A stretch of 64,000 nucleotides of DNA from Victivallales bacterium (GCA_963678815.1 OY787460.1:6394861-6458860); one strand, 5' to 3'; counted from the first letter of the stretch, positions 17,704 to 62,947 are shown. Notes: generated by a model from the sequence alone, not told the origin. Numbers and translations: made by a program.

Positions 17704-17741
17704 TTTTTTTACTGTTTTCAGGTAAGTATATTCAATATCCG

Positions 17742-18512: not shown

Positions 18513-18585
18513 ACGTCATCCTCCGTTTTGTTTTATTTTATACTTGTGAATATCCGCCGTTTTAGCTTTATTTGAATATGCATAA

Positions 18586-19872: not shown

Positions 19873-19874
19873 TT

Positions 19875-24232: not shown

Positions 24233-24257
24233 ATAAAACCTCCCCTGACAGTAAAAT

Positions 24258-25370: not shown

Positions 25371-25408
25371 GTTTTTATCATTTCGTAACAGGAATTACCA
25401 TGACTAAT

Positions 25409-27439
25409 CTAATCGATCCATACCGGACTTGCCCAGGCAATGTGTTTATCCTTCTGGATTACTCTTATATAATAAAAAGTGAACGGCTTTTCACAATATT
25501 TCACGGGAGGCAAATTGATATCTTCCAGCTCTTGATGGTCCGTCCATTCAAGCGAAAAGTCTTTCTCCAGGTTATTAAATGTTTTTACCGATTCGCCATT
25601 TCTAATGATATCAACTTTGCTAACATCTGAAGTGCCGTTGTAATCAATTGAAATTCGTCTTTTCCGGCTAACTTCCGGGAACTGACGCGAATTGATTTCC
25701 GTCCCCATTAGAAACTCATTTAATTTATAGTCAAGAATTACACGCGGCCCGGTTGTCGCCACTACCCGGCGGTTCCACATTCCTTCCCATAAGGATTTTT
25801 TTGTCAATTCTTTAGCAAATACACACATCATTCCGGCGCTCCTCTCCCTCTTCTCCATTCCCACTTTGTATGAGTGTTCATCCCCGCCGGAAGTAAATCC
25901 AACCCGCCAGCCCATTTTCAAAGCCTCACTTACATAGCCGGCCGGATTCGGGTTATACGGCGGTATGGTATTGCCTTCTTCTTCGGGACATTCCTGGCTG
26001 CCCCGGGTTTGGAATATTTCGACAAGACGTTCATGTTCAGGATCATGGTCAAGCCAATTACAGAAACTTCCGGAACATGTGGTATGATGAGGAATAATAA
26101 TGCATTTTTCATTCGCGACTGCTTTAAAAAGGTCATTAGGCCAGGGATAATGACCAAAGTCAGAACGGTACATCGGCCGGCCATTTTCAAGGTAGTATAC
26201 GTTGCGGTCTCCCTCTCCCTCCTTTCTCCATTTGGCGAATTCATAGCCAAGAAAAGTCACGAAATGCCCCGGTGAATTATATTTTCTCACACGTTCACAA
26301 GTGTGCCGCCAGAATTCATCGGAAGTTTCGGCAAGATGATCATGGTCTCCCGGAGCCCCGAAATCCATTCCGCAAACGTCCCGAAACTGCCGGAAATAAT
26401 GATCCATCGTACAGCTTCCATCCGAAATCTCGCTGTGACCGTGAATCATGCCCCAATAGGGAACAAGCGCGCTTTTTTCTGACACAATACGAATGGGGTT
26501 GGTATTCGTTGCCAAATTGTGATTTTTATCCTTGATAATGATTCTGTGGATGCCGGGTTCAGACAATGTAACAGTGATTTTTACTGTTGGCGTATTTTTT
26601 ACATTTCCTATCTTTGCATTAAGTTTGTGTTCCTCCAGCCACACCTCGAGATTCCGCAGGCCGGACATGGAAAGATTATCAAACTGGTCCTGTGGGGTAA
26701 CAGTGATTTCAAATGGTTTGCCCGCAATGGATTCCGATGGAGAATAAGCGCACAAACGTTCGACTTTACCGCCAAGAATATGTATCAATGCATAGTCAAG
26801 AATCTGGCCGTGATTTGCTTTAGTCCAGTATACCCCCTCCAGAGGTTTTTCCGCCACCTTACTGCCCCAGTCTTTTTCCCAACCGATATCGTTTTCAAAC
26901 TTATCGTCAGACACATAAAGCACAAAAAACTTGTTTAATCTCCAAAGATTACCGGGATCCGCACCCTTTTCCGTTTCACCGCGATCACCCATGACAAAAG
27001 TAAGAACAGCCCCCTTTTCAAGCGTATTGTCACCCGGATCAATCTCGAAAGTTCCTTTATTCACTTTTTGTCCGGGGAGGTCCAGCTCCGTTAATTTTAG
27101 CGGCGTGGATTCTTTTCCCTGCAAATAGCAGCTAATGTAATTGTCTTCGGATGGATTGTCTGACTGAAGAGAATTAAATCCAACTTTGTTGTTGCGGCCG
27201 CCCGAAGCTTGTAAGCGCAATTTTTCTTGCTTCCCGATACTCCTTGGCAGGATAAATGTTAATTTCCAGGAACCCTTTGTGCCGGCTATTGCATAGGGAG
27301 GATCGGCAAGGTTCATTCTGATGTTGCCGGGAAGTCTTAACGGAATGGAAAATTCGGGGATACACATCCCTGCGTCATCACATTTTTTTTGTGAACTATC
27401 ACTGCATAAATTTTTCTCAGTCATTTTTTTTCCTATCAT
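25409..27439 (-). CDS. PHP-superfamily metal-dependent hydrolase-like protein (DUF3604/CehA-McbA-like) with ~320-aa N-terminal beta-sandwich extension
   Basis: VPYWGMIHGHSEISDGSCTMDHYF...FGAPGDHDH...IIPHHT, and the terminal motif KHIAWASPVWID matches the 21522-23009 paralog. No signal peptide. Confidence 0.6.
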   Translation of the reverse strand: MIGKKMTEKNLCSDSSQKKCDDAGMCIPEFSIPLRLPGNIRMNLADPPYAIAGTKGSWKLTFILPRSIGKQEKLRLQASGGRNNKVGFNSLQSDNPSEDNYISCYLQGKESTPLKLTELDLPGQKVNKGTFEIDPGDNTLEKGAVLTFVMGDRGETEKGADPGNLWRLNKFFVLYVSDDKFENDIGWEKDWGSKVAEKPLEGVYWTKANHGQILDYALIHILGGKVERLCAYSPSESIAGKPFEITVTPQDQFDNLSMSGLRNLEVWLEEHKLNAKIGNVKNTPTVKITVTLSEPGIHRIIIKDKNHNLATNTNPIRIVSEKSALVPYWGMIHGHSEISDGSCTMDHYFRQFRDVCGMDFGAPGDHDHLAETSDEFWRHTCERVRKYNSPGHFVTFLGYEFAKWRKEGEGDRNVYYLENGRPMYRSDFGHYPWPNDLFKAVANEKCIIIPHHTTCSGSFCNWLDHDPEHERLVEIFQTRGSQECPEEEGNTIPPYNPNPAGYVSEALKMGWRVGFTSGGDEHSYKVGMEKRERSAGMMCVFAKELTKKSLWEGMWNRRVVATTGPRVILDYKLNEFLMGTEINSRQFPEVSRKRRISIDYNGTSDVSKVDIIRNGESVKTFNNLEKDFSLEWTDHQELEDINLPPVKYCEKPFTFYYIRVIQKDKHIAWASPVWID

Positions 27440-33884: not shown

Positions 33885-35321
33885 TTATCTTCCGGTAATC
33901 TCGGAGTTGAGCTTTTCATCGAAATTACGTTTGCCTGGAATGACCCCGAGTTTTTGTGCAAGTTCATCGCAACTTTTTTTCCAGTTAATAATTTCTTGTT
34001 TCAGTAGCCGAGCTTCTTGTGGCAGTTCCGAATTACCGTCAATCAGATTGTGTAATTCATTGGGATCATTTTCCAGGTCATAGGCTTCGTCGCCGTAATC
34101 AGGATCAATAATATATGAATATTGCTTTGACCTTGCGGCCATAACCAGTCCAGGATGACGGCCGGAATACGGCAGTCCCCAGGGCATCGTGGTTTTCAAG
34201 TGTCCGTGATATTCCCCCACTGCGCTGAACACCGTCTCGCGGAGCGGTTCGCGGCAACCTTTTTCGAGCCATGCTTTCAGGTCGTGTCCCTGCGCCTGCT
34301 CTGGAATTTCGCAACCGCCAATCCCGAGGATGGTTGAAAACAAATCAGTCAACTCCACCAGCTCGCCAGTTCTGAATCCCGCCAGTTTTGCCTGCTTTGG
34401 AGCCCGGATCACCAGCGGCACGTGAGTCAGGCATTCGTAAAGGGTTTCGCATTTGGTAAAAAATCCTTTTTCACCGGTGAAATCGCCGTGATCTGAAGTC
34501 AAAATGATCCAGGAATTTTCAGCCAGCCCTTTTTTGTCGAGATAATCAAGGAACCTGCCGATTTCATGATCGACATACGAAATCAGGCCGTAATATGCCG
34601 CAACCAGCTTTTTGATGTCATCAACATCAGCGTCAGCGGTTTTGTAATCTTCGAGCATCTGTTTATGCCATGCAGGAGCTTGCCCCGGTTCAGCTCTGGG
34701 TGGTAACGGAATGTCGTTAAAATCCACGGTATTGCCGAAATCGCTTGGCGCAAAATAAGGTGGATGCGGTTCGATGTAGGCCAGATGGACAAACAAAGGT
34801 TCATCATCCGCCGCGTTTTTTTCGATCAGGTCGATGGCGGTGTCCGTCAGGAGAGCAGCGTGTGCCTTTTCTCCCGCAATGTCCTGAGTGCCTGATGACC
34901 AACCGCATACCCGCGAACCGTGCTTATACAGCTCCTGCACGGCATGTTTTAGTTCGGGAGTTTCCATCATATCAACATGTTCATCCCAACCCTTGGTCAG
35001 GTTGCGCTCTGACTCGTAATGTCCGGCGGCAAAACAACGGTAACCCATTTCTCTCAGATATTCCGGAAGCTGCTTCAAATTGCCGGGGGCGTGGTTCTGG
35101 TGGCAAAACACCTGATGTACCGGCGGGTAAGTCCCGGTCATCAGCGTCACCCGGCTCGGGGTGCAGATCGGACTTGCCGAATAAGCGTTATCGAACACCG
35201 CGCCCTGTGCCGCCACCCGTTCCCAAGTGGGGGTTTGCACCTGTTTGTTGCCGTAAATGCTGGTTGCGGAAGCCTTTTGCTGATCGGTCATGATCAGAAA
35301 AATATTTGGTTTTTCAGGCAT
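33885..35321 (-). CDS. Sulfatase (Cys-type), no signal peptide
   Basis: MPEKPNIFLIMTDQQ...SPICTPSRVTLMTGTYP...TSDHGD. The ATG at 35321 has GGAGGTGAA upstream. The 32-codon extension in the track (to 35417) would contain the promoter. Confidence 0.9.
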   Translation of the reverse strand: MPEKPNIFLIMTDQQKASATSIYGNKQVQTPTWERVAAQGAVFDNAYSASPICTPSRVTLMTGTYPPVHQVFCHQNHAPGNLKQLPEYLREMGYRCFAAGHYESERNLTKGWDEHVDMMETPELKHAVQELYKHGSRVCGWSSGTQDIAGEKAHAALLTDTAIDLIEKNAADDEPLFVHLAYIEPHPPYFAPSDFGNTVDFNDIPLPPRAEPGQAPAWHKQMLEDYKTADADVDDIKKLVAAYYGLISYVDHEIGRFLDYLDKKGLAENSWIILTSDHGDFTGEKGFFTKCETLYECLTHVPLVIRAPKQAKLAGFRTGELVELTDLFSTILGIGGCEIPEQAQGHDLKAWLEKGCREPLRETVFSAVGEYHGHLKTTMPWGLPYSGRHPGLVMAARSKQYSYIIDPDYGDEAYDLENDPNELHNLIDGNSELPQEARLLKQEIINWKKSCDELAQKLGVIPGKRNFDEKLNSEITGR

Positions 35322-35367
35322 GATATTATATTCACCTCCAACGTTTCTGCATATAAATTTCAGATGT

Positions 35368-35396
35368 ATAATAATAATGTAAAAACACAATGTCAA
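35368..35396 (-). promoter_or_regulatory. Promoter of the 33885-35321 sulfatase
   Basis: Minus strand reads TTGACA (35396-35391), 17 nt, TATTAT (35373-35368). Confidence 0.5.
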
Positions 35397-35444
35397 AGTT
35401 CCTGGCACAGAAATCAATCAACTTTTCAATTCGGCATTTATTCC

Positions 35445-35622: not shown

Positions 35623-36726
35623 ATGAATTCAAAAGCGAGGATGAAAGCGGTATTTACCGGTCAACGGCCTGACAAAGTTCCATTTTGCCCGACCATATAT
35701 CTGGATCATGCGGCGCTGGTCAGCGGCAGACAGTTTGAAGATGTGATTGCCAATCCCGCGTTGTACGGGGAAGTGTTGGCTGGGGCCGCCGCAACATATA
35801 AAACCGACGCGGCAAGATTCATCATGGGGCCGGAAGCTTCCTGGTATGAAAAAAAGGAAGTCAGGAAAGAACAGGATAAACTTATCCAGTACGACAGGAT
35901 CTCCGGAAAGGCGGAAGGATATTTTGATATCGAAGGCGGCGGCGGTTTTATTCCCTATAATGAGCCGACCCCGGTCACTTCAAAAAGCGATGTTGACGCC
36001 ATCGAAGTTATCACCTGCGATGAATATCTGGAACGAGGAAATTTCAAGGACACCAAAACCTGGATAGCCAAAGCCGATGAGCAGGAATTTTTCACCGTCG
36101 GGCTGTCCGGCGCGCAAACCCTGAATTTCATGGTTGAAAAAATGGGCTCGACAGAGGCGGCGCTCCTATGCTTTTACGACGATCCCGAGCTTGCCCTTGC
36201 CCTTATCAATAAAGGAACAGCAATCAGTCTCGAGAAAGGCAAAGCTTTCATCAAATGCGGAATCGACTGTCTTTACATCGGGGATTCTTATGCTTCCGGA
36301 AGTGTAATATCTCCCGATATTTACGAACGGTTCTGCGCTCCGGCTTACAAGGAAGCGGCTGAAGAATTTCACCGTCTCGGGGTATTCTGCTACAAACACT
36401 GCTGCGGAAATTACAATCCGCTGTTGCGAAGTCTGCCCGAAACCGGCGTCGACGGCATGGACGGCATCGATCCAACCAGCGGGATGAGCGTAAAGCATAC
36501 CAAGGAACAGATTGGCGATAAAATTACGCTGATGGGCGGAATAAGCTGTCTGACTTTGCTGAATGGCTCCCCCGGGGATGTTTACGAGGAAGCACGGCAA
36601 TGTATCGAAGCCGGGAAACCCGGCGGCGGATACGTGTTGGGCAGCGCTTGCGCGGTACCGAAATTATCGCCGTTTGAAAACCTGCACACAGTATTTCAGG
36701 CAAGGGAAGACTTCGGAGTTTATTGA
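35623..36726 (+). CDS. URO-D/MtaA-like (uroporphyrinogen decarboxylase family) TIM-barrel protein
   Basis: N-terminus ARMKAVFTGQRPDKVPFCP. Core: CLYIGDSYASGSVISPDIYERFCAPAYKEAAEEFHRLGVFCYKHCCGNYNPLL. C-terminus: GGYVLGSACAVPKLSPFENLHTVFQA. All three are family hallmarks. Confidence 0.8.
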   Translation: MNSKARMKAVFTGQRPDKVPFCPTIYLDHAALVSGRQFEDVIANPALYGEVLAGAAATYKTDAARFIMGPEASWYEKKEVRKEQDKLIQYDRISGKAEGYFDIEGGGGFIPYNEPTPVTSKSDVDAIEVITCDEYLERGNFKDTKTWIAKADEQEFFTVGLSGAQTLNFMVEKMGSTEAALLCFYDDPELALALINKGTAISLEKGKAFIKCGIDCLYIGDSYASGSVISPDIYERFCAPAYKEAAEEFHRLGVFCYKHCCGNYNPLLRSLPETGVDGMDGIDPTSGMSVKHTKEQIGDKITLMGGISCLTLLNGSPGDVYEEARQCIEAGKPGGGYVLGSACAVPKLSPFENLHTVFQAREDFGVY

Positions 36727-36730
36727 TAGG

Positions 36731-38206
36731 TTACTGTCCGCTTTGCCGACTTACCTGGCAAGTGTCGGGGCCGAAAATAGCGGTTCCGAGCGCAGTGACC
36801 GTCAATGCGGAAAGAAATGCCGTTGGCGACACCCATAGCACCATAATCTCGAAATAAAATCTTGCTAACCAGGCGATTGCACAGCCGGCAACCATTCCGG
36901 CGATCAGCGAGGCGCGATGTACTTTCCTGTTGGACACCGCAACCAGCATGCACAGAAGTAACGGGCCAAGAAACGCACCCAAAAGCGTCATGGTAATCTG
37001 GAAAATAGAACCAAGCTTGTTGACCAGACCGGCGCTGATAGTGCTGAGCAACCCAATTATTATGCTGCATATTTTTCCGAACCGGACCTGTTGCCGAGGC
37101 GTCAATCCGCCCCAGCAACGCTGTTGGAAATCCAAGGTTATCACCGCCGACAAAGTATTGACGCCGCTGGTAATACTGCTGACCGTGGCGGAAAGCAGCG
37201 CCGCCAGCATCAATCCGGCGATTCCGGCCGGAAGCTGGCTGGCAATGAAATACGGCAGAATTTTATCGGGTTTCACCGGGAGATTCGGATCCGGAACGAA
37301 CATGAACCAGGCGCGGAGCGACAGTCCGATGCCAACCAGTAGCACAATCACGCAAATTACCCCGGACAACGACACCATCATGGAGCGGGAAGTGGCTTTT
37401 ATATTGGCGGTGGTAAGATAACGCTGGAGCGACATCTGGTCAGCCATCCAGGAGGATGAACTGGAAACCAGGAACCCTAATGCCGACCAGAACGTAAAAG
37501 GAATTGTCAGGCTCAACGTAAGTCCGGGCGGTTTCAATAACCCTTCCCTGGCAAGTTTCGGGAACGCTTCGGATAAACCTGCCGGCAGGTTCCAGAGAAT
37601 GTACCCTATCGTGAAAATCACGCCGCCGCCCATGATCAAAAACTGGATTGCATCGGTAATTATCACCCCGCGCACTCCTCCAATTGCCGTGTAAATCGTG
37701 GCGCTTAACCCTATCAGCAACGCCAGCGGCCAGAACCAGCCGGAGCTGAGATCCATAGTTGCCATCACCGCCATCACCGGAGCATAGATCAATGCCGACA
37801 TCCAGCCGATCCGCAACAGCACATACATGCTGGCGGCAACGGTCCGGACCCGCGATCCAAGCCGGTCTTCAATTACTTGATATGGATGCTGGTTACCAGT
37901 CCGGAGGTAACGCTTCAGGAACCAGAAACGCGTGATCAGCCAGGTCCCCGGAAGGCTGATCAGGCAGATCAGCACTTTGACCCCATTCTGCCAGGAAACA
38001 CTTGGATAAGCCAGAAAACTAATGCCGCTGAAAAAAGTTGCGGCGATACTCAATCCCACCAGGATCGAGCCCATCATGTTTCCCATGCCGCCGCGGGTAG
38101 TGAAATAATCGTTGACGTCGTCCTGTTTGCCGCGGCAGGCAATCCCAACCACCACCATTGTGCATAAATAAACGATGATCAGGAGTATATCAATCCAGTA
38201 CAGCAT
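36731..38206 (-). CDS. Sodium:solute symporter family (SSS/SLC5) transporter
   Basis: Polytopic and hydrophobic throughout. N-terminus DYFTTRGGMGNMMGSILVGLSIAATFFSGISFLAYPS is typical of SSS. Its stop lies only 4 bp from the convergent URO-D-like gene stop. Confidence 0.85.
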   Translation of the reverse strand: MLYWIDILLIIVYLCTMVVVGIACRGKQDDVNDYFTTRGGMGNMMGSILVGLSIAATFFSGISFLAYPSVSWQNGVKVLICLISLPGTWLITRFWFLKRYLRTGNQHPYQVIEDRLGSRVRTVAASMYVLLRIGWMSALIYAPVMAVMATMDLSSGWFWPLALLIGLSATIYTAIGGVRGVIITDAIQFLIMGGGVIFTIGYILWNLPAGLSEAFPKLAREGLLKPPGLTLSLTIPFTFWSALGFLVSSSSSWMADQMSLQRYLTTANIKATSRSMMVSLSGVICVIVLLVGIGLSLRAWFMFVPDPNLPVKPDKILPYFIASQLPAGIAGLMLAALLSATVSSITSGVNTLSAVITLDFQQRCWGGLTPRQQVRFGKICSIIIGLLSTISAGLVNKLGSIFQITMTLLGAFLGPLLLCMLVAVSNRKVHRASLIAGMVAGCAIAWLARFYFEIMVLWVSPTAFLSALTVTALGTAIFGPDTCQVSRQSGQ

Positions 38207-40372: not shown

Positions 40373-41905
40373 ATGAAATCAAATTTTCTTAAGTTTGCGT
40401 TGTTATTGGGAGTTGTATACAATTTTAACGTTGTGAATCTGACGGCTGTCGACGCACTGCCCCGGGAACCGGTGGAAATCGGCTCGGCGCCACAATTTTT
40501 TGTCGACGACTACATGGTTTTCAACCGCTGGGCGGTAAGGCCCAAGTATAGCGTGGTCAGGAAGTTTCACCAACCCGTTAAACATCCGAAAAATCCCATG
40601 CTTGAAGACGTCGGATACATCAATGTCATTTATGACGCCGATAAAAATATCTTCCGCTGCTGGTATCAGACCGCCTGCATGGTAAAAGAAACCAAACCAC
40701 GTAAAGCCCGTTATGGAATTGCATATGCCAAATCGAAAGACGGTATCACCTGGACCAAGCCGGAACTCAAACTGGTTGAATGGCAAGGAAGCAAAAAAAA
40801 TAATCTTGTAATGGCGGATTTATCCGGATGCTTTCTGCTGGACATTCCCAAAGAATATCGGCGGGGCTACAAATACCTGATGCTGGTAAATGAAAAAGGT
40901 TTCCACCTGATCGGCAGTCACGACGGTATTAACTGGGATACCGAAAAGGCCGCATATCTCGGTTCACACCTTCGCAGCGACAGCCAGAACAGTATCGTAT
41001 ACGATTCTTTGCGCAAGGAGTTTGTGATGTCCTGCCGTCCGCGCCCGCCGTTCTGGGGCGGCGGCAATCGGATGATCGCGGGCGCTTCCCGGCGCGTTGC
41101 CCGGTTGAGCAATTCAAAATTATGGACCGAATGGCCGGGAACTCCGCAAACCATCTTGATTCCGGATAAAATCGACACGGAAAAACGTTTCAACTTTTTC
41201 TACGGTATGCCCTTAACTTACAAATACGGTATTTACTGGGGATGTTTGTGGCCTTTCAAACTGAACACCGACATTTACACGGAAATGGTTTACAGCCGGA
41301 ACGGAATCAATTATACACGCCTGCCGGGACGCCCCCCGCTGATACCTCTCGGCAAGAACGGCGAATTTGACGACGGCATGACTTTCGCAACAGGCTGGGT
41401 CGAATACAAAGACGAATGGCGCTTTTACTACTGCGGACACGATGGGCCTCATGGCGCTGGAGCAAATAAACGGACGGCCCGAATGGGCATGGCCTCGGTG
41501 AAAAGGGGACGCCTGGTTTCCCTGTACGGCCCTGAAAGCAAAGGCGGAGTTGTCTGCACCCGCATGGTAAAGTGGCCCGGAGGTAAGCTGTTGCTGAATG
41601 TGAAGGCACTGAATGGCGTCGTTAAAGTAAGAATCATCGACCGCAATCGCAAGGACATTCCCGGATTCACTTACAAGGACAGTGTCTCATTCACTGGTGA
41701 TGCTCTCGATCACGAAGTTCGCTGGGAAAAAGCCTCAATTGAATCAATGAAAGGCAAATGTTTTTATATTGAAATTTTTCTGCGGGATGCCGACCTGTTT
41801 TCTTTCCGGGCAACTGGCGGTTCACCTGATACGGTTTCCAAACAACAACAGCCTGGGAAAGAATCGTTCGCGCCGGAATACGATAAATTCAAACGTAAAC
41901 ATTAA
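40373..41905 (+). CDS. Secreted beta-propeller GH-like protein (GH43/GH32-clan-like; family not assigned)
   Basis: Signal peptide MKSNFLKFALLLGVVYNFNVVNLTAVDA. PQFFVDDYMV...KNPML...IFRCWYQ...GIAYAKSKDGITWTKPEL are blade-like motifs common in five-bladed propeller hydrolases. Assigned by eye only. Confidence 0.5.
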   Translation: MKSNFLKFALLLGVVYNFNVVNLTAVDALPREPVEIGSAPQFFVDDYMVFNRWAVRPKYSVVRKFHQPVKHPKNPMLEDVGYINVIYDADKNIFRCWYQTACMVKETKPRKARYGIAYAKSKDGITWTKPELKLVEWQGSKKNNLVMADLSGCFLLDIPKEYRRGYKYLMLVNEKGFHLIGSHDGINWDTEKAAYLGSHLRSDSQNSIVYDSLRKEFVMSCRPRPPFWGGGNRMIAGASRRVARLSNSKLWTEWPGTPQTILIPDKIDTEKRFNFFYGMPLTYKYGIYWGCLWPFKLNTDIYTEMVYSRNGINYTRLPGRPPLIPLGKNGEFDDGMTFATGWVEYKDEWRFYYCGHDGPHGAGANKRTARMGMASVKRGRLVSLYGPESKGGVVCTRMVKWPGGKLLLNVKALNGVVKVRIIDRNRKDIPGFTYKDSVSFTGDALDHEVRWEKASIESMKGKCFYIEIFLRDADLFSFRATGGSPDTVSKQQQPGKESFAPEYDKFKRKH

Positions 41906-50026: not shown

Positions 50027-52180
50027 ATGATTAAGCGAAAAAATGACGGAATCACTATCAAGAGCGGTATTATTAAATCGCTTTACCTGAATGGCAATGA
50101 ATTAGTCGTGCCCGGTTCCGGAGAATCCTTGTGGAAAATGGAGTTAAGAAACCGGGAAACTTTAGAGACATGTTGTATATCCGCAACTGAATGTAAAGAT
50201 TGGAAACGGACTGAAGAAATCTTTCGTGAATCCGAAAAAATCACCTTAAAATATGTAATAAATGATAATAAAAAAGACATTATTTCCTTTAAAATTCAAG
50301 TAATTTTACGTGACGGCAAAGCGGAATTTAATTTTTTCATTAAAAGCATATTTGCTGATTGGCAATTGTCAAGGGTATGGTGTCCGGTGATACCCCTTGA
50401 ACGGCTTCCCGCCGGAAAAACTGACGGCAAACTTTTAATTCCGCATTACTGCGGACAGGTTATCCAAGATCTGCATAATGAACCGGAGAGAATTGTAGAT
50501 TACGGAGACGACGCTTTGATGGCAATTGCCCGTTGCCGGTATCCATCGAAACACGCAACTTTACAGATGGCTTTTTACTTTGGCGACGCAGGCGGAGCAT
50601 TGTTTATGACTCCAGATCCGCAACGCAAACTCAAGGAATTTTTATTCGACCGCAATCCGGAAACAAATGGAGTACGCGCAAGTTTTCTGCATTATTTCAA
50701 CAATCCGGAAACAGAAATAACTGATTTGAGTCCCGGTTGTCCCTCGGTAGTTGAGTGGGTTGACGGCGACTGGTTCGACGCCGCCCAGGTTTACCGGAAA
50801 TGGGCCGAACAGCAAACCTGGACGGAGAAAACCATTCCGGAGCGCGAAGATATTCCGGATTGGCTGAAGACTCTTCCGCACTGGCTCAGGACCCCGAAAG
50901 ACATCAATGTTCCCTGGGAAAATTTCATGGACTGGCCGCTGAAATGGGCCGAGGCCACAGGAAAACCGATGGGAGTGCATGTTTACGGCTGGGATGCTCC
51001 GGGCGGACCGGTAAATACCAATTATCCGAAAATGGGAAAGCCGCGCGCGGAGTTTGCGGAAATGGTGAAATGCTTTCATGACTCCGGGATTTTTGTTATG
51101 CCTTATACCAACACCAGAGTGACCTGCACCGACAGTCCGGCTTGGGATGATTTTAATGATACTCCGGTCCTGGACCGTAAGGGAAATATTGCTTCAGTTG
51201 AAAGTTGGGGCAGCAATACAACGGACCAGAAAGAGTTCAATCTGGCGATTAAAGGCGGCAGGAAAGTTAAATACGAAAATTACGCCGGTTTGCCTGCCAT
51301 GATGATATTTCATAATTTCGCGGTGAGTTGTGCCGGTGCGGAAAAATGGCAGGAAAATATTCGCGAAAACACCATGAGTCTGCTTATTGATGAAAAGGTT
51401 GACGCGGTTTATCAGGACCAGCTGGGAAGCATTCCGCTGATTTGCTACGACTCCCGGCACGGACATTATCCCGGAGATCCGGAAGCCTGGCAACGGGGAA
51501 CCGAAAAAACCTATCGCGAAATCCGTGAATCCATGCGCCGGGAAAATATCAAAGGGGCGCTGATTTCCGAATATATTTGCGAAGCGCAATTGCCGTATAT
51601 TCACGGCGCACTGACGATAAGCCCGGCAATGGCGTTCCATTCGGCACTGCCGCTTTTTCAGGCGATTTATCATCCTTATTTCATTTCTCTAGGCTGGATC
51701 GAAGCAAAACCGGCAAGTTTGAAGCGTGATAAACATGAGTATCTGCGTCAGCTCATGCAGCCGTTTTTTTACGGCAACCAGCTGGGCTGGTTTTTCTATA
51801 CTGTTGAGGAACTGATCGAGAATCATCCCGACTTGGTTTCGTGTTACCGGAAAATGGTTGATCTGCGGAAAAAATATCCGGAGATGCTTTGTTACGGAAG
51901 GCTGTTACGCCCTCCCCAAACCACCGGTTTCAAACAGGATGTTTTCGGAGCAATGTTTTCTGATTTGTCCGGGAAACGGATGCTGGCGGTGTTCGGAAAC
52001 TTTACGGAAAGGACGCAGAGCGGCAAAGCGGCATTGGATATTTCCACTGAAAAAGGACCGGCTGTGATTGATCTGGAGCTGCCCCCATGCTCAGTGCGGG
52101 AATTCGTGTTCACCAAGTCAGGTGTTAAACTTACAAATCTTTCCGGTACTGCAACGGAGAAACTCCGGTCTTCCGTTTAA
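50027..52180 (+). CDS. Cytoplasmic paralog of the 43324-45537 GH-like protein
   Basis: Same motif set (WFDAAQVYRKWA, VHVYGWD, MPYTNTRV, DAVYQDQL, GHYPGDPEAW, ISEY) but no signal peptide (MIKRKNDGITIKSG). Confidence 0.5.
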   Translation: MIKRKNDGITIKSGIIKSLYLNGNELVVPGSGESLWKMELRNRETLETCCISATECKDWKRTEEIFRESEKITLKYVINDNKKDIISFKIQVILRDGKAEFNFFIKSIFADWQLSRVWCPVIPLERLPAGKTDGKLLIPHYCGQVIQDLHNEPERIVDYGDDALMAIARCRYPSKHATLQMAFYFGDAGGALFMTPDPQRKLKEFLFDRNPETNGVRASFLHYFNNPETEITDLSPGCPSVVEWVDGDWFDAAQVYRKWAEQQTWTEKTIPEREDIPDWLKTLPHWLRTPKDINVPWENFMDWPLKWAEATGKPMGVHVYGWDAPGGPVNTNYPKMGKPRAEFAEMVKCFHDSGIFVMPYTNTRVTCTDSPAWDDFNDTPVLDRKGNIASVESWGSNTTDQKEFNLAIKGGRKVKYENYAGLPAMMIFHNFAVSCAGAEKWQENIRENTMSLLIDEKVDAVYQDQLGSIPLICYDSRHGHYPGDPEAWQRGTEKTYREIRESMRRENIKGALISEYICEAQLPYIHGALTISPAMAFHSALPLFQAIYHPYFISLGWIEAKPASLKRDKHEYLRQLMQPFFYGNQLGWFFYTVEELIENHPDLVSCYRKMVDLRKKYPEMLCYGRLLRPPQTTGFKQDVFGAMFSDLSGKRMLAVFGNFTERTQSGKAALDISTEKGPAVIDLELPPCSVREFVFTKSGVKLTNLSGTATEKLRSSV

Positions 52181-52961
52181 AGAACGAGGAAAAGACGTAA
52201 ACGTTGGCGAAGTTGAGCGATTCCGCGATTTCCGAGATGTTCCGTTCGGAGTTTTCGAGCATGTTCTGAGCCATGGAAAGTTTGCGGTTCAACCAGTATG
52301 AATAAGGATACATGCCAGTAACCGCTTTAAATTTTTTCCGGAAACTTTCATATCCCACTTTTTCCATTTTCAGAAACTTCTTGACATCGAAATGGCGCTC
52401 CCGGGTATTCTCATCGACATATTTCCGAAATTTTTCAATGATATTCAAGGATTCCTCATCGGAAAGGAATTCGTTGTGATATGTGCTGGTGATTTCCGCG
52501 AGCAGCGAACACAGTTCCCCGGACGCCTGGGCCGCCGCGATTCCAGTGTTTTTTTTGCTCATTTCAAGAATATACTCAAAAGAATAGCGGAATTTTCGCG
52601 GATTTTCCGGTTTTAAAACAATCGGTTTACCGGGGGAGATCATGTTCATCATGGTTTCCGCGAGTTTACCGTTAAATCTGATCCAGATGTGTTTGAAAAA
52701 CGCCCCGGGAACCGGCTTATAACTGTACCAGTGGCCCTGGAAGGCCAGAATCAAACAGTCCTTTTTAAAAAACATCGGCTTACCGCTGGCCCGGCTCAGG
52801 TATCCGGAGCCATCAAGCACGTAATCAAGCCCGTAAGCCCTTGGCATATAGCCGCCGGCCTTTTCATGGCGATTGTCGTCAATGACTGTTTCCGCCAGTT
52901 TGGTTATCTCAAGCACCGAGGAGAAAGCGTTTTCCGGAGGATAATAAATAACTTCTTCCAT
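52131..52961 (-). CDS. AraC family transcriptional regulator
   Basis: Cupin-like N-terminus. C-terminal HTH: ISEIAESLNFANVYVFSSFFKRKTGVSPLQYRKDL. The 3' end overlaps the convergent 50027-52180 gene by 50 bp. Confidence 0.9.
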   Translation of the reverse strand: MEEVIYYPPENAFSSVLEITKLAETVIDDNRHEKAGGYMPRAYGLDYVLDGSGYLSRASGKPMFFKKDCLILAFQGHWYSYKPVPGAFFKHIWIRFNGKLAETMMNMISPGKPIVLKPENPRKFRYSFEYILEMSKKNTGIAAAQASGELCSLLAEITSTYHNEFLSDEESLNIIEKFRKYVDENTRERHFDVKKFLKMEKVGYESFRKKFKAVTGMYPYSYWLNRKLSMAQNMLENSERNISEIAESLNFANVYVFSSFFKRKTGVSPLQYRKDL

Positions 52962-53075
52962 ATTGTACCTTTTTTAATAAAATATATACCTGTTCTTATA
53001 TTCCATTATCATACTTTATTGCATAACTTAATACAAGAGACTTAAGATGTAAAACTACTTTTGCGGGAATTTGAG

Positions 53076-54548
53076 ATGTTTGAATTCGATGCGGATAAAA
53101 TAGCCTTGAAAGGCAAAAAGATTTATGAAACGGCAGTGGGCTTGCTCAGACAGCACGGCATGCTGGTGCAGGATGAATTTTGTCGTGAAAGGATACTTCA
53201 GCATGACGGAACCCGGATTGAAGGAGAGCGGATTTGCTATTCCGGGGAATTGATCCGGAAGCTGGTTCCGTTTGACGGCAAAAATCAAGAGCAGCTCTGC
53301 GATACGGATGGAATGTCCTTTCATTTCCGTGGCAATTGCGAAGACGAAGCAGGATACCGTTTCCGCGCCGGTGGATTTGCCATGGCGGTTTACGATGCCG
53401 GGTTGAAAAAAACGCGTCCGTCAACCATGAAAGACCTTGAAGAAGCTTTAATGCTATGTGACGTAATGGGTTTTGGGGGACATTATCCCTGTACTGCCAC
53501 GGACTGCAATCCGGAGCTGAGAAATGTGGCTTCGCATTACATGAACTTCAGTAAATCCAGGTTTAACTGTACACATGTTTGTATCGGTACGGAGCAGGCG
53601 GAATTCATTTACCGGCTGCACGAAGTAATGGGACCTGAAGCCCGGATGCCTATCACCATGACCATTGTTACACCGTTCCGGATCGAGGAAACCAACCTGA
53701 AAGTTATCAGGTATTTCATGGAAAAAGAAGTGCCGTCGGAGTCAATCCGGATAGTTCCGGTAGCATATGGTCTGGGAGGAATGAATTACCCGATCACCCT
53801 GGGCGGTTCCTGGGCCTTGAGCATTGCCGAACACATGGGATTGAAAACAACCGCAACACTGCTGGACAGCGGATTTAAAATCGAACCGGGGATCGGCCCG
53901 GCCGGAATTGGCCCGATAGATTTCAACAACATGTGTCTGGCGCTGGGAAATCCGAACCAGTTTTTTTATCATTTCGCGAATAATATCCTGGCGCATGCCG
54001 TGTTCGGTCGCGACTGGCGGGAATACCCGGTAATTCCCCAGGAACTCTGGACCGGAAGCCCGGTTCCGGATTCCCAGGCCGCGGCCCAGAAACTCGCCGC
54101 CGCGATTTTCGGTCATTTGCACGGCTGTAAAAGATTCAGCACCCTGGGCAATCTTTGCGTCGACGATGTCTTCTCCTGTGAACAGATGCTTTTGGACACG
54201 GAAATGATAAAATACGCCGGACAGGTGGTAACACAGTTCGGCAAAGCTGATGATTTCATGGACCTGGCGAGTTTAGAGCAGGAGGTAAACGACTTTGTTA
54301 TAAACGGCACAAATTTCATGATGGCGGATTCCACCCTGAGACATCTTCGAAACCTGTGTCCGGAACCCGGAATATTCGTTCACAAAAAGCTTCCCGCTAT
54401 TTCCAATACCGGCAGTGACCGGTTGCTGAAAAAACTTACGGCACGGAAAGAAAAGTTGTTGAAACAATATGATTTCGCTTTGCCGGAATCACAGCAGCGT
54501 GAACTTGATAAAATTTTCGCGGAAGCCCAAAAGAAACTAACAGAATAA
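53076..54548 (+). CDS. MttB-superfamily (trimethylamine methyltransferase-like) protein, divergent, non-pyrrolysine
   Basis: N-terminus KGKKIYETAVGLLRQHGMLVQDEFCRERILQHDGTRIEGERICYSGELIRKLV follows the family's N-terminal pattern. Central YPITLGGSWALSIAEHMG corresponds to the PVTLAG region. The track start at 53061 is a TTG; I prefer the ATG at 53076. Confidence 0.65.
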   Translation: MFEFDADKIALKGKKIYETAVGLLRQHGMLVQDEFCRERILQHDGTRIEGERICYSGELIRKLVPFDGKNQEQLCDTDGMSFHFRGNCEDEAGYRFRAGGFAMAVYDAGLKKTRPSTMKDLEEALMLCDVMGFGGHYPCTATDCNPELRNVASHYMNFSKSRFNCTHVCIGTEQAEFIYRLHEVMGPEARMPITMTIVTPFRIEETNLKVIRYFMEKEVPSESIRIVPVAYGLGGMNYPITLGGSWALSIAEHMGLKTTATLLDSGFKIEPGIGPAGIGPIDFNNMCLALGNPNQFFYHFANNILAHAVFGRDWREYPVIPQELWTGSPVPDSQAAAQKLAAAIFGHLHGCKRFSTLGNLCVDDVFSCEQMLLDTEMIKYAGQVVTQFGKADDFMDLASLEQEVNDFVINGTNFMMADSTLRHLRNLCPEPGIFVHKKLPAISNTGSDRLLKKLTARKEKLLKQYDFALPESQQRELDKIFAEAQKKLTE

Positions 54549-54563
54549 TAGCAAAACAAGAAA

Positions 54564-55994
54564 ATGAAAAAACCCAATATTCTCTACATAATGACCGACC
54601 AGCACCGGTTCGACTCGTTGAGTTGCACCGGTAATCGCGGGGTGCGTACCCCAAATATCGACAGCATTGCAGAGTCCGGGGCGAATTTCCGAAACGCCTG
54701 TACGCCGTCGCCGGTTTGCGCACCCGCCCGGGCCGCGATTTTCAGCGGACAGTATCCGCCTGGCTGCGGGGTCACGGGCAACTGGCTTCCCTTCAACGGC
54801 AATCAGGTATTGATGACCGATCAACTGAAACGCGCCGGATACGATACCGCATGTGTAGGAAAACTGCATTTTGTTCCGCACGTCTGCAGTTGGGGATTCG
54901 ATCACAAAGAACTTCATGACTGCCCGTGCAGCATCTACGCTGACGATGACAAATATTCCGCATACATTGATTACCTTAAGGAAGTCTACGGCGAAAAAGC
55001 GGGCGCGGAGCTTGTAAAAATGTTCGACGAGGATGAATTGTGCTATCCGAAGGGCATGAAGCAGTTTATTCTCGGCCGCAATTTCATTCCAGAGGAACAC
55101 CACATGGTTACCTGGACCGCAAACCGTTCGGTGGAATATCTGAAAAATCGTGAAAAATCAAATCCGTTTTTCATGCACGTGTCTTTCATGGGACCGCACC
55201 AGCCCTGGGACGTGCCGGAAAACTGGCGGAGAATAAAACCGGAAGACATAAAGGTTCCCGAATTCGACGACGATTATTCCGATAAACCGATCATTCTGAA
55301 AACCAAGCAGAACAACTTCAGGGAATTCAAGAAACAGCTTACTAAAGATGATTACCGCTTTCTGATCTCTCAATATTTGAACCACGTGGAAATGATCGAC
55401 CATTATATCGGTAAACTCTTTGAACAACTTAAGCAGTCCGGGGAATGGGACAACACCATGATTATCTTTACCTCCGATCATGGCGACCACAACGGTCAGT
55501 ACGGTTTATTTTTCAAAGGGACGATGCTGGAAACCTCGGTAAAAGTGCCCCTGATAATCAAACCTCCCGGCGGAATTGCGGAAAAAGAAGTAGTTGATCC
55601 GGTGTCTTTGCTGGACCTTTACGGGTCCATTCTGGACACTGCCGGAATATCGGACTGGAAATATGAGCAGATTGAATCCGGTTCACTAAACAATTATCTT
55701 AAAATGCCCTCGACCACCGGACCAGGCAAATGCTTTTCATATCACCGCAACAATGGAGCAACGGTTCTTACCATGTACCGCGACGGCAAGTTCAAACTTG
55801 TCAGGTGTGAAAAAAATGACGCCCCAATCCTTTATGAATTCTATGAACTCAAAGCTGGCCGGCTGGATGGCGGAAACCTGTTCGATTTTCCCGCTTATCA
55901 ATCAAAAATCCGCGATATGAAAAAAATTCTGGATGATTGGTCGGAACAGCAGAAAACCCCGGCAGCCCATAACTGGCGCAAAAGTAAGCCGTAG
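54564..55994 (+). CDS. Sulfatase (Cys-type, CAPAR variant), no signal peptide
   Basis: MKKPNILYIMTDQHRFD...SPVCAPARAAIFSGQYP...TSDHGD. It lies 15 nt downstream of the MttB-like gene. Confidence 0.9.
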   Translation: MKKPNILYIMTDQHRFDSLSCTGNRGVRTPNIDSIAESGANFRNACTPSPVCAPARAAIFSGQYPPGCGVTGNWLPFNGNQVLMTDQLKRAGYDTACVGKLHFVPHVCSWGFDHKELHDCPCSIYADDDKYSAYIDYLKEVYGEKAGAELVKMFDEDELCYPKGMKQFILGRNFIPEEHHMVTWTANRSVEYLKNREKSNPFFMHVSFMGPHQPWDVPENWRRIKPEDIKVPEFDDDYSDKPIILKTKQNNFREFKKQLTKDDYRFLISQYLNHVEMIDHYIGKLFEQLKQSGEWDNTMIIFTSDHGDHNGQYGLFFKGTMLETSVKVPLIIKPPGGIAEKEVVDPVSLLDLYGSILDTAGISDWKYEQIESGSLNNYLKMPSTTGPGKCFSYHRNNGATVLTMYRDGKFKLVRCEKNDAPILYEFYELKAGRLDGGNLFDFPAYQSKIRDMKKILDDWSEQQKTPAAHNWRKSKP

Positions 55995-59688: not shown

Positions 59689-60546
59689 ATGAACACATCA
59701 TTCAAACCGTGCTTATGGTCACCGTATCCCCGGCTGGTTCACGATTTCAAAAATCCGGCCACCGGGGAATATGTTTACTTTAAATCCCAACTCACCGACC
59801 ACGCGCTGCATTATTTTCTATCTGGTTCCGGGAAGTACAACCTTGAAGGAAAAACCTACCGAATCGAACCGCATATGCTGTTTGCGGTGCGCCCCGACAC
59901 CGGCTACAGTTTCAATCTTTTCCCCAATACAAAACCGCGCATGCTGAACATCCATTTTGACCCGATCGAACAGGAGGATTCCAATTACCCGTTTCCGTAT
60001 CCCCCCGGCAAGCGAACAGTGCCTCCGGTGGTCATGCCGCGCGACTTTCCCTCGGCAATGCGGATGCACAATCATCAAAACTACGAACAACTTTTTTATC
60101 AGTTGCACGCTATCTGGCAGCTGCCGGGAATGAATTGGCGGCTCAAAAGCAAAAGCCTTATGCTGGAAATCCTGGGATTGCTTTACACGAATACCGGGGA
60201 AAATCCGCCGGGAACGGAAGCATTTCACCGCGAAACTGTAAAAAAAGCATTGGAACATATTCAACAAAACCTCCACCGGAAAATCCCCCTGGACGAACTT
60301 GTCGCGGCAAGTGGAGTATGCCGCGCATTGTTCATCAGGATATTCAAGGAAGAGTGCGGAATGCCCCCGGCAAGATACATAAGCAAACTGAAAATCGACA
60401 AGGCCAAAAATGAACTCGCCTATCATGACACCCCAATCAAGGAGCTGGCCGACAATCTGGGGTTTGTCAATGTCCATCATTTCACCCGGATATTCCGGGA
60501 GTTCGCCGGCATTCCTCCCGGACAATACAAAAAACACATAAAATAG
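59689..60546 (+). CDS. AraC family transcriptional regulator
   Basis: Cupin-like N-terminus (YRIEPHMLFAVRPDTGYSF). C-terminal HTH: PPARYISKLKIDKAKNELAYHDTPIKELADNLGFVNVHHFTRIFREFAGIPPGQYKK. Confidence 0.9.
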   Translation: MNTSFKPCLWSPYPRLVHDFKNPATGEYVYFKSQLTDHALHYFLSGSGKYNLEGKTYRIEPHMLFAVRPDTGYSFNLFPNTKPRMLNIHFDPIEQEDSNYPFPYPPGKRTVPPVVMPRDFPSAMRMHNHQNYEQLFYQLHAIWQLPGMNWRLKSKSLMLEILGLLYTNTGENPPGTEAFHRETVKKALEHIQQNLHRKIPLDELVAASGVCRALFIRIFKEECGMPPARYISKLKIDKAKNELAYHDTPIKELADNLGFVNVHHFTRIFREFAGIPPGQYKKHIK

Positions 60547-60577
60547 ACATTTAGACAAATATTTATACTTCCCGGCA

Positions 60578-60606
60578 AAGACATTTTTCCTTTTCCGCCG
60601 TATTAT
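60578..60606 (+). promoter_or_regulatory. Candidate promoter placing the transcription start at or next to the GRE start codon
   Basis: AAGACA (60578-60583), 17 nt, TATTAT (60601-60606). The ATG at 60614 is 7 nt after the -10, and no Shine-Dalgarno is visible. Confidence 0.3.
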
Positions 60607-60613
60607 TTACGAC

Positions 60614-62947
60614 ATGAATAATACACGAAAATCAAAGTTGGAACTTCTGAAACAGGATGTTACGGAGCGGCACGGTTCGTTTGTTCCTGAAATGAATATT
60701 TTCCGCCGTGACCTGGCGTTATGGAACTCGGCGGTTAATTACGGGCAATCGATCATTACCACCAAGGGGGGACTGCTCCTTGAACTGGTTAAAACCGTGA
60801 CAATAAAAATCTTCCCGCACTGGACACTCGCCGGGGAACACCTGATATATTCTAGTGAAAAGCATTCCCAAAATGCTTTTTTCGGGTTCAAGCATGCAGT
60901 TGTGGAAGAACATCTGGAAGAACTCGAGGCCATGAATTTTTCGGAGGAACAGGCTGTAGCGATCCCGGAACTGGTGAAAAAAATAACTCAACTCAGGGGA
61001 AATCTTGTCGGGCATCCCAAACCTGAATCCGGCAAAGAACCGTATGAAGACGCATACCATCAGAAAAATCTGGAAATTCTTTTGGCCCGGGGCTGGATGG
61101 AAAATCATTCGATCCGCGACTTCGCAAAACTGGTCAAAATTGGATTTTCCGGACTAAAAAAAGAAGTGCGAAATGAGCTGTCCGGGCTTGATATCGCTTC
61201 CCCCGAGTACGCGGAAAAAGAAAATTTCCTTACTGCCGTTTCACTGGTCTGCGACGCCGGAATCCTGCTGGGAAAACGCTATGCGGAACTGGCAAGGGAA
61301 ATGGCCGGCAAAGCCGATAATCCGGAAGAAAAACGGCGGCTGTCAATGATGGCCGAAACCTGTGAAAAAGTGCCGGGGAACGGCGCGCAAACCTTCCGTG
61401 AAGCAGTCCAGGCGCTCTGGTTCGGACATATCATGACCTGCGCCGAAGACGGCATTAACGCCAACTCCATCGGCAGACTCGACCAGATATTGTATCCATA
61501 TTATGAAAAAGATCTTGCCAGCGGACGCATCACCCGGCAGGAAGCACTGGAACTGATGGAGGAACTCGCCTGCAAGCTATATCTGGATTATGACGTCCAG
61601 GCGATCACTCTCGGCGGTGTGGACAGAAACGGCAAGTGCGCCGTGAATGAACTCAGCTACATAATCCTGGAAGCCACCGAAAACTTCGGGCTGATCCGGG
61701 ACCTGTCGGTTAGGATCAATGATGACACCCCGGAAGAGTTTATCGATGCATGTTCGCGGCTGATTGTCAGGGGCGGAGGCATTCCGTTTATTTTCAATGA
61801 CGATTCTTTTATCAAGGCGCTGACCGACCGGGGAATCAGTCCGGAAGACGCCACCGACTACGCTCCAATCGGCTGTGTTGAACTCACGATTCCCGGCAAA
61901 GCCAATCCCCATGCGGTATCGGGCTGGTTCAATTCAACCAAATGCCTGGAGCTGGCGCTGTTCAATGGCGTCGACCATCGTAGCGGTTGCCAGTTCGGGC
62001 CGAAAACCGGCGAGCTTTCTACGTTCAAAAGCTTCGATGAGCTGTATAAAGCATACTGCGCCCAGGTTAAGTTCTTTGCCGACCGGATGGTTTACCGCTG
62101 CAACGCCGGGGAGCTTAAACAGCGCGACTTCGGCCCCATGCCTTGCTGGTCACTCCTGACCGACGACTGCATCAAGCGCGGAAAAGACATTACCAACGGC
62201 GGTCCGCTTTACAACTATCATTCAATCTGCTTTCTCGGCGCTCCCGACACCGCCGACTCGCTCTTCGCCATGAAAAAATGTCTGTTTGAAGAAAAAAACG
62301 TTGATCCCGAAACTTTGCTGGAAGCGCTCCGCAATGACTTTTCCGGATTCGAGATTCTGCAAAAACAGCTACGGAAACTGCCGAAATACGGCAACGACAT
62401 CAGTGAAGTTGATTTACTGACAAAACAGGTTTGCGACGACTTTATCAGCCTGATGGACACCATGCGCAGTCCCCTCGACGGCAGATACTTTGTGCATCTG
62501 TTTACGTTCATCCTGAACCTTTCTTTCGGGAGAGCGGTCGGGGCGATGCCGGACGGACGGAACGCCGAAACCCCGCTGGCATATTCGCTCTCGGCCCATC
62601 AGGGACGCGATGAAAAAGGTCTCACCGCCATGCTGAACAGCCTGGCGAAACAGCCTCACGATAAAGCTGCCGGAGGATCGGCGGCGATCATTGATATTAA
62701 TCCGTCACTTCTGCAGGGGAGCGGCAAGGAGAAGCTGATGAGCAATATTATCAGGACCGGACTGAAAATGGGCATCGGCCAGATGCAGTGGAACATTACC
62801 ACGGTTGAACAACTGGAAAAGGCCCGGAAAGATCCTGACCGGTATGGCAATACCCCTGTGCGGGTGGCCGGATACTCCCAGATGTTCAAACTGATCACCC
62901 CGGAACTCCAGGACCATATTATTGCCCGGACAAAACACCAATCCTGA
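60614..62947 (+). CDS. Glycyl radical enzyme (PFL-fold; GCVE-type 1,2-eliminase/dehydratase-like)
   Basis: C-terminal glycyl radical motif TPVRVAGYSQMFKLITPELQDHIIARTKH (Gly codon at 62870-62872). Cys loop YAPIGCVELTIPGK (Cys codon at 61874-61876). 777 aa. Confidence 0.9.
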   Translation: MNNTRKSKLELLKQDVTERHGSFVPEMNIFRRDLALWNSAVNYGQSIITTKGGLLLELVKTVTIKIFPHWTLAGEHLIYSSEKHSQNAFFGFKHAVVEEHLEELEAMNFSEEQAVAIPELVKKITQLRGNLVGHPKPESGKEPYEDAYHQKNLEILLARGWMENHSIRDFAKLVKIGFSGLKKEVRNELSGLDIASPEYAEKENFLTAVSLVCDAGILLGKRYAELAREMAGKADNPEEKRRLSMMAETCEKVPGNGAQTFREAVQALWFGHIMTCAEDGINANSIGRLDQILYPYYEKDLASGRITRQEALELMEELACKLYLDYDVQAITLGGVDRNGKCAVNELSYIILEATENFGLIRDLSVRINDDTPEEFIDACSRLIVRGGGIPFIFNDDSFIKALTDRGISPEDATDYAPIGCVELTIPGKANPHAVSGWFNSTKCLELALFNGVDHRSGCQFGPKTGELSTFKSFDELYKAYCAQVKFFADRMVYRCNAGELKQRDFGPMPCWSLLTDDCIKRGKDITNGGPLYNYHSICFLGAPDTADSLFAMKKCLFEEKNVDPETLLEALRNDFSGFEILQKQLRKLPKYGNDISEVDLLTKQVCDDFISLMDTMRSPLDGRYFVHLFTFILNLSFGRAVGAMPDGRNAETPLAYSLSAHQGRDEKGLTAMLNSLAKQPHDKAAGGSAAIIDINPSLLQGSGKEKLMSNIIRTGLKMGIGQMQWNITTVEQLEKARKDPDRYGNTPVRVAGYSQMFKLITPELQDHIIARTKHQS

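Follow-up and report, generated by a model that had tools for sequence, protein, structure and literature searches.

A divergent MttB-like gene paired with a leaderless sulfatase gene in a sugar-degradation island of a Victivallales bacterium

The closest described counterparts of the gene considered here are MtgB of Desulfitobacterium hafniense and MtpB, MtcB, MtyB and MthB of Eubacterium limosum, MttB-family enzymes that lack pyrrolysine. MtgB binds glycine betaine through residues Y97, R312, H348 and F356 (PMC13080624), and in E. limosum one distally encoded corrinoid protein, MtqC, serves MtpB, MtcB and MtyB alike (PMC12155760). Outside this family, aerobic marine bacteria demethylate 6-O-methyl-D-galactose with a cytochrome P450, a ferredoxin and a reductase (Reisky 2018; PMC6292453). 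This oxygen-dependent P450 route is the only one known for the demethylation of algal methoxy sugars, and the mechanism of their anaerobic demethylation is stated to be still unknown (PMC12316285). Here we describe a divergent MttB-like gene, the sulfatase gene that directly follows it and an adjacent AraC-type regulator gene in a 64,000-nucleotide stretch of a Victivallales bacterium genome (GCA_963678815.1 OY787460.1:6394861-6458860; the whole stretch is referred to below as the window). Our favoured reading, to which we give a probability of roughly 0.4, is that an AraC regulator here controls two cytoplasmic enzymes that together process a small sulfated molecule of sugar origin, probably also methylated; if methyl transfer is retained, the corrinoid partner would be encoded elsewhere.

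The MttB-like gene (53076–54548, + strand) is an uninterrupted open reading frame (ORF) of 490 amino acids with an ATG start, a TAA stop and no in-frame pyrrolysine codon; its product is 100% identical over 490 residues to a database protein, P0001. Exactly 15 nucleotides (nt) (54549–54563, +), in which no terminator-like hairpin was found, separate it from the gene for a leaderless S1 formylglycine-type sulfatase (54564–55994, +; 476 amino acids; Pfam Sulfatase and SGSH_C). Upstream, an AT-rich spacer of 114 nt (52962–53075), presumed to hold the promoter and operator, divides the MttB-like gene from a divergently transcribed gene for an AraC/XylS-type regulator (52131–52961, − strand; 276 amino acids). 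This regulator has a C-terminal double helix-turn-helix (HTH_18, E = 6.3e-15, 55.7 bits; HTH_AraC, E = 3.6e-09, 37 bits) and an N-terminal cupin-like ligand domain that is matched weakly (AraC_binding, E = 5.3e-05, 23.4 bits against a cut-off of 21.1). The spacer contains only weak inverted repeats (52975–53020) and, in a promoter scan, one weak sigma-70-like match (52974–53002). ORFs, Pfam matches and sequence agree with the initial annotation of this locus on the coordinates of the three genes, the 15-nt gap and the divergent orientation of the regulator. From this geometry, 53076–55994 is likely to be co-transcribed as a two-gene operon under the divergent AraC regulator. At its other end the regulator gene overlaps convergently, by 50 nt (52131–52180), with the 3′ end of a DUF6259 gene (50027–52180, +), and a GH65-like gene on the opposite strand converges on the sulfatase gene.

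The MttB-like protein matches Pfam MTTB (PF06253) over residues 15–480 (E = 9.9e-15; 54.0 bits, cut-off 25). An AlphaFold model built from nine sequences (predicted local distance difference test score (pLDDT) 76; predicted template-modelling score (pTM) 0.77) has the MttB-type TIM-barrel fold: the ten best Foldseek matches in the PDB were all MttB, MtgB or 4yyc (E about 1e-17; TM 0.62–0.66; 15–18% identity), with 7xcn, 2qne and 9yce at the top at TM 0.65. On the family match and the modelled fold, we consider the predicted membership of the MttB superfamily secure. The protein is not trimethylamine methyltransferase (MttB proper), as it reaches 62.9 bits on TIGR02369 against a cut-off of 525. 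Like MtgB and the E. limosum enzymes, it combines a PF06253 match and a TIM-barrel fold (TM 0.65 to 2qne, 9yce and 7xcl) with the lack of a pyrrolysine codon and retention of the core superfamily residues, here G235, P239, A251, E252, D332, Q334 and D374. Unlike them, it has Trp at the pyrrolysine position, shares only 16–18% identity with them and has no neighbouring gene for a corrinoid protein, a methylcorrinoid:tetrahydrofolate methyltransferase or an activase; it lies in a carbohydrate setting beside a sulfatase gene, in a sugar-degrading bacterium of Planctomycetes–Verrucomicrobia–Chlamydiae (PVC) type rather than in an acetogen or methanogen. The Trp in question, W325 (codon 54048–54050, +), aligns with Pyl334 of Methanosarcina MttB in a profile alignment to 7xcl, and by column statistics is invariant in the six closest proteins and Tyr in P0008.

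Alignments and column statistics locate two regions that set this protein apart. The central motif (YPITLGGSWALS, residues 238–249; 53787–53822, +) reads YGLGGMNYPITLGGSW where the wider branch has M-P-x-x-G-x-[TS]-A-P; P239, T241 and G244 are common to a canonical-like paralogue encoded in the window (discussed below), and N237, Y238 and W246 are clade-specific. The second region is an invariant block (LGNLCVDDVFSCEQ, residues 357–370; 54144–54185, +), in which D363 aligns with the MtgB cation–π residue F356, and D363-[D/E]364 is a mark of the whole divergent branch. By transitive alignment through 7xcl and the window paralogue, the MtgB positions Y97, R312, H348 and F356 are taken here, in that order, by Gly, a residue that varies, Ser/Gly and Asp363, the alignment of the Y97 loop being uncertain; none of the four carries the MtgB residue. 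Fixed in the close clade and absent from the wider branch are C139, H154, H167, H182, Y231, N237, Y238, W246, H253, W325, C361 and C368. The altered pocket residues together with these clade-specific invariants indicate that pocket chemistry has clearly changed. The initial annotation had pointed to an altered PVTLAG-type central region and had found it consistent with neofunctionalisation: the alteration is real and specific to this clade, and given the number of His, Cys, Tyr and Trp residues that are invariant in this clade alone, and the loss of all four MtgB substrate-binding residues, the interpretation is a plausible one.

Close relatives are few. Only six proteins, each at least 45% identical, came back at E ≤ 0.001 from a word-indexed search of 5.8 billion protein clusters; three of them are paralogues in the same 8.6-Mb genome, P0002 and P0004 being the two paralogues of P0001. 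When 1.84 billion representatives were searched exhaustively with HMMER, three representative clusters exceeded 600 bits, followed by scores of 331 and 257 bits; 41 proteins lay below E = 1e-30 and 770 below 1e-3. The scarcity of close matches and the drop in score suggest that the MttB-like clade is small and lies on a divergent branch of the superfamily. A profile re-search of the protein database added only P0008 and P0012, and a scan of species-representative genomes found only L007, encoding a 29% identical relative, and the fragment L008. L008 and the two fragments that were the sole yield of a metagenome scan, L009 and L010, look broken and are uninformative. Neither a tblastn search of plasmids nor a scan of viral contigs gave a match.

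Gene context could be read at five retrievable loci of the close clade: the window (P0001), L001, L003-5, L006 and L011. In the window, the MttB-like and sulfatase genes stand beside the divergent AraC gene with their 15-nt gap. At L001 (P0006, 45% identical) the order is aldose epimerase, MttB-like, sulfatase (18-nt gap), AraC, epimerase, DegT, URO-D, sulfatase, URO-D and MetH activation-domain protein, and at L003-5 (P0005, 47% identical) it is AlaDH, DegT, a gene of unknown type, GFO, epimerase-like, MttB-like and sulfatase (21-nt gap). The MttB-like gene of L006 (P0003, 54% identical) is the last in its transcription unit, and that of L011 (P0008, 45% identical) lies between DUF3604 and Amidohydro_2 genes, with genes for an HpcH aldolase and an MtaA-like protein convergent to them. 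At the loci of two more distant relatives, L007 (29% identical) and L012 (26% identical), we found GFO oxidoreductases, an aminotransferase and a sugar ABC transporter, and no sulfatase.

A same-strand sulfatase gene thus begins 15–21 nt downstream of the MttB-like gene at three of the five close loci (the window, L001 and L003-5), compared with 6 of the 74 other genes there (Fisher p = 0.009). The pairing is not confined to this genome, for it was met again at L001 and L003-5 in this sample of five loci. P0005 and P0006 are sisters (65% identical) whose partner sulfatases are orthologous (79% identical), so the independent count is two of four lineages, for which p = 0.05 (about 0.03–0.08 once phylogeny is allowed for). 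The window sulfatase is 27–30% identical to the partners at L001 and L003, no closer than to any other sulfatase, and orthology with them was rejected at that identity. As the partners are not orthologous, the pairing seems to have been built or rebuilt with different sulfatases, and this speaks to a modest degree for selection acting on the pair as such. Orthology was likewise rejected for the two AraC genes, that of the window and that of L001, between which no similarity was detected. In their formylglycine motif the L001 (11483–13042) and L003 (8452–10011) sulfatases read C-M-A-T-R, with Ala for Pro. Downstream of the MttB-like/sulfatase/AraC unit of L001, the run of genes from the sugar epimerase to the MetH activation-domain homologue (14056–20749) has a second sulfatase gene embedded among methyltransferase-family genes.

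The alternative that there is no functional couple, with adjacency a by-product of high sulfatase gene density and the two enzymes working on different molecules, draws on the same figures. About 47 genes were counted in the window and six encode sulfatases, no two of which stand behind the same kind of enzyme gene; in comparable PVC anaerobes sulfatases make up 8% of genes (PMC6388578). The lack of orthology between the partner sulfatases, the two loci with no downstream sulfatase and the phylogeny-corrected p value are all compatible with coincidence. Against it stand the same strand and the 15–21-nt spacing in three of three cases, the recurrence of the pairing across proteins just 45–47% identical, the excess over the local background and, in the window, a pair that has a divergent regulator to itself and so makes up a minimal unit. 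On balance we think it unlikely that the adjacency is incidental.

The window holds another MttB gene, which the initial annotation had counted as a further case of an MttB-like gene directly preceding a sulfatase gene. This canonical-like, non-pyrrolysine MttB (16324–17703, −; Pfam MTTB 238.9 bits; PDB 7xcm 162 bits) overlaps by 4 nt with a GNAT acetyltransferase gene (15476–16327, −; Pfam Acetyltransf_18 and Acetyltransf_1), which is followed by the gene for a leaderless sulfatase (14044–15504, −; Pfam Sulfatase 148 bits). The three genes (14044–17703) overlap or abut and, from their arrangement, look like one operon; upstream of it lie a DUF1559 gene, an FAD-dependent oxidoreductase gene and a gene for a GntR–solute-binding fusion regulator. 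Direct precedence therefore holds for 53076–54548, but at 16324–17703 the GNAT gene intervenes. With six sulfatase genes among about 47, the window alone is weak proof of pairing: a sulfatase gene directly downstream is expected by chance at p of about 0.13, and the two-fold pattern at about 0.03. The argument that repetition within the window marks a functional couple is accordingly only suggestive, and it is the recurrence in other organisms that lends it support.

The sulfatase itself (54564–55994) matches Pfam Sulfatase (PF00884) from residue 4 (E = 7.5e-51; 173.7 bits), with the metal-binding Asp at position 12 in MTDQHR. This leaves no room for a signal peptide, which indicates a cytoplasmic enzyme. 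Translation gives a Cys-type formylglycine motif, C52-A-P-A-R56 (54717–54731, +), and GKLH stands at the signature-II position; family match, C/S-x-P/A-x-R motif and N-terminal Asp are together those of an S1 sulfatase. It had been described earlier as leaderless with a variant CAPAR motif, and it is leaderless and has the motif, but CAPAR falls within the canonical C/S-x-P/A-x-R. Among window ORFs of at least 200 amino acids, none had a radical-SAM or FGE Pfam match that would mark a sulfatase-maturation enzyme (anSME/FGE). The nearest PDB chains (9koq, 4upi, 5g2v and 6fny; 140–152 bits) are a mix of uncharacterised sulfatases, a GlcNAc-6-sulfatase and a choline sulfatase.

The last of these bears on the proposal, made in the initial annotation, of a sulfated quaternary amine such as choline-O-sulfate as substrate. 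In a refined form of this idea the sulfate ester would supply the acidic group of a zwitterion, which the MttB-like enzyme would demethylate before the sulfatase removed the sulfate. So far the superfamily is known to act on trimethylamine and acidic quaternary amines, and one member, MthB, requires phosphocholine in place of choline (PMC12155760), making a sulfate ester a plausible acidic handle; a cation could be bound by the clade-specific aromatics and by D363 with D364. Like BetC of the Sinorhizobium betICBA operon, which acts on a small molecule, the sulfatase is a cytoplasmic S1 enzyme whose formylglycine motif is of the Cys type, and its alignment to choline sulfatase 6fny spans the full length (140 bits). 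Unlike BetC, it falls well short of the cut-off for the choline-sulfatase equivalog TIGR03417 (203.6 against 433.45 bits), scoring no better than the other five window sulfatases (all six score 180–322), and BetC identity was rejected on that score. No bet genes and no choline or betaine transporter gene, whether of BCCT or ABC type, were found in the window or at any related locus; corrinoid genes are likewise missing nearby, the MtgB cation–π residues are not conserved and the contexts of the MttB-like branch, at seven loci (the five close ones, L007 and L012), are all those of carbohydrate catabolism. Choline-O-sulfate did not hold up as the substrate, and we regard a sulfated quaternary amine as very improbable.

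Those contexts are a better fit for the other substrate class suggested at the outset, a sulfated, methylated sugar. On our favoured reading, the AraC regulator would switch on the MttB-like/sulfatase operon, and the substrate would be a mono- or oligosaccharide freed by the neighbouring leaderless hydrolases (GH38, DUF6259 and GH65-like). The sulfatase and the MttB-fold protein would act in succession on a single molecule, the sulfatase cleaving the sulfate ester and the MttB-fold protein most likely taking an O- or N-linked methyl group from the same sugar and passing it to a corrinoid protein. That protein would be encoded elsewhere in the 8.6-Mb genome, and an MtaA-type protein such as that encoded at 35623–36726 could be the second methyltransferase. 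The shared substrate, the methyl transfer and the identities of the partners are inferences; in favour of the reading, the gene contexts are always those of sugar metabolism and include DegT aminotransferases, GFO/IDH/MocA oxidoreductases, Amidohydro_2 and HpcH aldolase proteins and a sugar ABC transporter. The aldose-1-epimerase-like gene directly upstream at L001 and L003, and the lactonase-family Amidohydro_2 and aldolase genes at L011, point to a substrate at the level of the free monosaccharide.

The putative distal partner (35623–36726, +) is a homologue of MtaA/CmuA-type methylcobalamin methyltransferases. It matches Pfam URO-D, yet scores 109 bits on NCBIfam TIGR01463 against 28 bits on HemE, and its His-x-Cys and later Cys align with those of MtaA in 4ay7, which we take to be zinc ligands. 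The gene is flanked by a sodium:solute symporter gene (36731–38206) and a sulfatase gene (33885–35417). The MtaA-like gene of L011 encodes a protein 62% identical to it and lies about 2 kb from the MttB-like gene for P0008, with two genes between, and near the MttB-like gene of L001 lie a MetH activation-domain homologue and two genes of the URO-D family. This recurrence of corrinoid methyl-transfer family genes beside clade members (L001 and L011) speaks for methyl transfer. As in the methanogen MttB–MttC–MtbA system, both enzyme families are present in the window, with two MTTB-family genes and one MtaA/MtbA-type gene; unlike that system, there is no MttC in the window, the MttB-like and MtaA-type genes are 17 kb apart in different operons, and pyrrolysine is absent. 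To our knowledge, coenzyme M, the thiol acceptor, is not to be expected in a bacterium.

Several points weigh against this reading. No cognate corrinoid protein gene lies near the pair or its relatives: B12-binding Pfam domains were absent from window ORFs of at least 200 amino acids, from the larger L007 ORFs and from the called genes of the other loci; six-frame translation showed no DxHxxG motif in the window or in 12 loci; and no cobalamin riboswitch was found in the window or the related loci, which come to about 100 kb. All characterised MttB-superfamily enzymes act on trimethylamine or acidic quaternary amines and none on sugars (PMC12155760, PMC13080624). Identity to solved members is only 16–18%, and none of the MtgB substrate-binding residues is kept. 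L006 and L011 have no downstream sulfatase gene, and the pairing statistics come from five loci in genomes of a kind in which sulfatases are 8–13% of genes. The local absence of a corrinoid protein is not decisive, since the E. limosum MttB-family enzymes share the distal MtqC.

The same observations could be met by a different enzyme in a real couple, namely that this MttB-fold clade is corrinoid-independent (for example, a metal-dependent isomerase, lyase or hydrolase) and acts on a sulfated sugar before or after the sulfatase. Such an enzyme would account for the lack of any corrinoid protein or riboswitch at the seven loci of the divergent branch, for the gained His, Cys, Tyr and Trp invariants listed above, for Asp or small residues at the aromatic and basic pocket positions of MtgB, and for neighbours that are ordinary sugar-catabolic enzymes. 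Counting against it are the recurrence of MtaA/CmuA-like and MetH activation-domain genes near clade members and the retention of the core superfamily residues. We also know of no MttB-superfamily member with an activity other than methyl transfer. Overall we hold a corrinoid-independent enzyme to be rather unlikely, though a rival to be taken seriously.

The surroundings agree with a sugar substrate. A Pfam map of the 64 kb is that of a carbohydrate-degradation island, with sulfatase genes starting at 5642, 14044, 27455, 33885, 45546 and 54564, together with GH2, GH38, two DUF6259 proteins, a heparinase-II/III-like protein, a beta-helix protein, many GFO/IDH/MocA oxidoreductases, and AraC and GntR regulators. 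All six sulfatases and the GH38, DUF6259 and GH65-like proteins are without signal peptides, so the island seems to be wholly intracellular and to act on imported oligosaccharides. Five DUF1559/N-methyl prepilin-like genes (at 1126, 2055, 17742, 38480 and 39523), typical of the PVC superphylum, indicate an organism of that group; G+C content is about 45%. In its sulfatases, glycoside hydrolases, AraC and GntR regulators and DUF1559 proteins the island resembles the sulfatase-rich islands of anaerobic PVC bacteria such as Pontiella, where many sulfatases are likewise cytoplasmic (PMC6388578). In the literature searched, we found neither MttB-like nor MtaA-like genes as regular members of such islands.

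Also in the window are an operon (21522–27439, −) encoding two DUF3604 proteins, a GFO/IDH/MocA oxidoreductase and a very weakly URO-D-like protein (a DUF3604 gene is also found directly upstream of the MttB-like gene at L011), and two large ORFs inside glycan operons with no Pfam match, 40373–41905 (+; 510 amino acids) and 11801–14026 (−; 741 amino acids). A scan of the whole 64 kb gave no Rfam family at gathering score, and so no riboswitches, those of the cobalamin type included.

Downstream of the pair, an AraC regulator gene is followed by that of a 777-residue glycyl-radical enzyme (59689–62947, +; enzyme 60614–62947). The enzyme falls below every equivalog cut-off (hydroxyproline dehydratase, 424 against 1100; sulfopropanediol dehydratase, 414 against 1000; choline trimethylamine-lyase, 344 against 1050) and may have a new specificity linked to the breakdown of sulfated or deoxy sugars. 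No glycyl-radical activase gene was identified in the window, with nothing near 64000 checked. The presence of this enzyme makes the organism probably an anaerobe, to which the oxygen-dependent P450 route for methoxy sugars would be unavailable. The P450 system is nonetheless a possible functional analogue, as it removes a methyl decoration from an algal sugar and is encoded at a polysaccharide-degradation locus beside sulfatases; its fold and its chemistry, an oxygen-dependent oxidation to formaldehyde, are unrelated, and any action of the MttB-like protein on a methoxy sugar is hypothetical. A speculative extension, which we consider quite unlikely as it stands, is that the MttB-fold clade and the MtaA/CmuA-like proteins that recur beside it are how anaerobes demethylate methylated and sulfated algal sugars: a corrinoid-dependent system, missing until now, that would need no oxygen and would work in the cytoplasm at the monosaccharide level with a dedicated sulfatase.

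Searches of the literature for MttB with sulfatases, in PVC glycan loci or in anaerobic sugar demethylation found no prior description. Were the pairing incidental, this would be one more uncharacterised gene in a sulfatase-rich island. If, however, the clade is fixed in sugar-degradation islands and repeatedly coupled to a cytoplasmic sulfatase, it would point to a new substrate class for the MttB superfamily, and if the sugar-demethylase reading is true, the superfamily would extend from quaternary amines to carbohydrates. An MttB-family protein in an unexpected and recurrent sulfatase and sugar context hints at an unknown step in anaerobic sulfated-sugar breakdown. It could bear on how anaerobes strip methyl decorations from algal polysaccharides, and on the turnover of sulfated-glycan carbon in anoxic sediments and guts.

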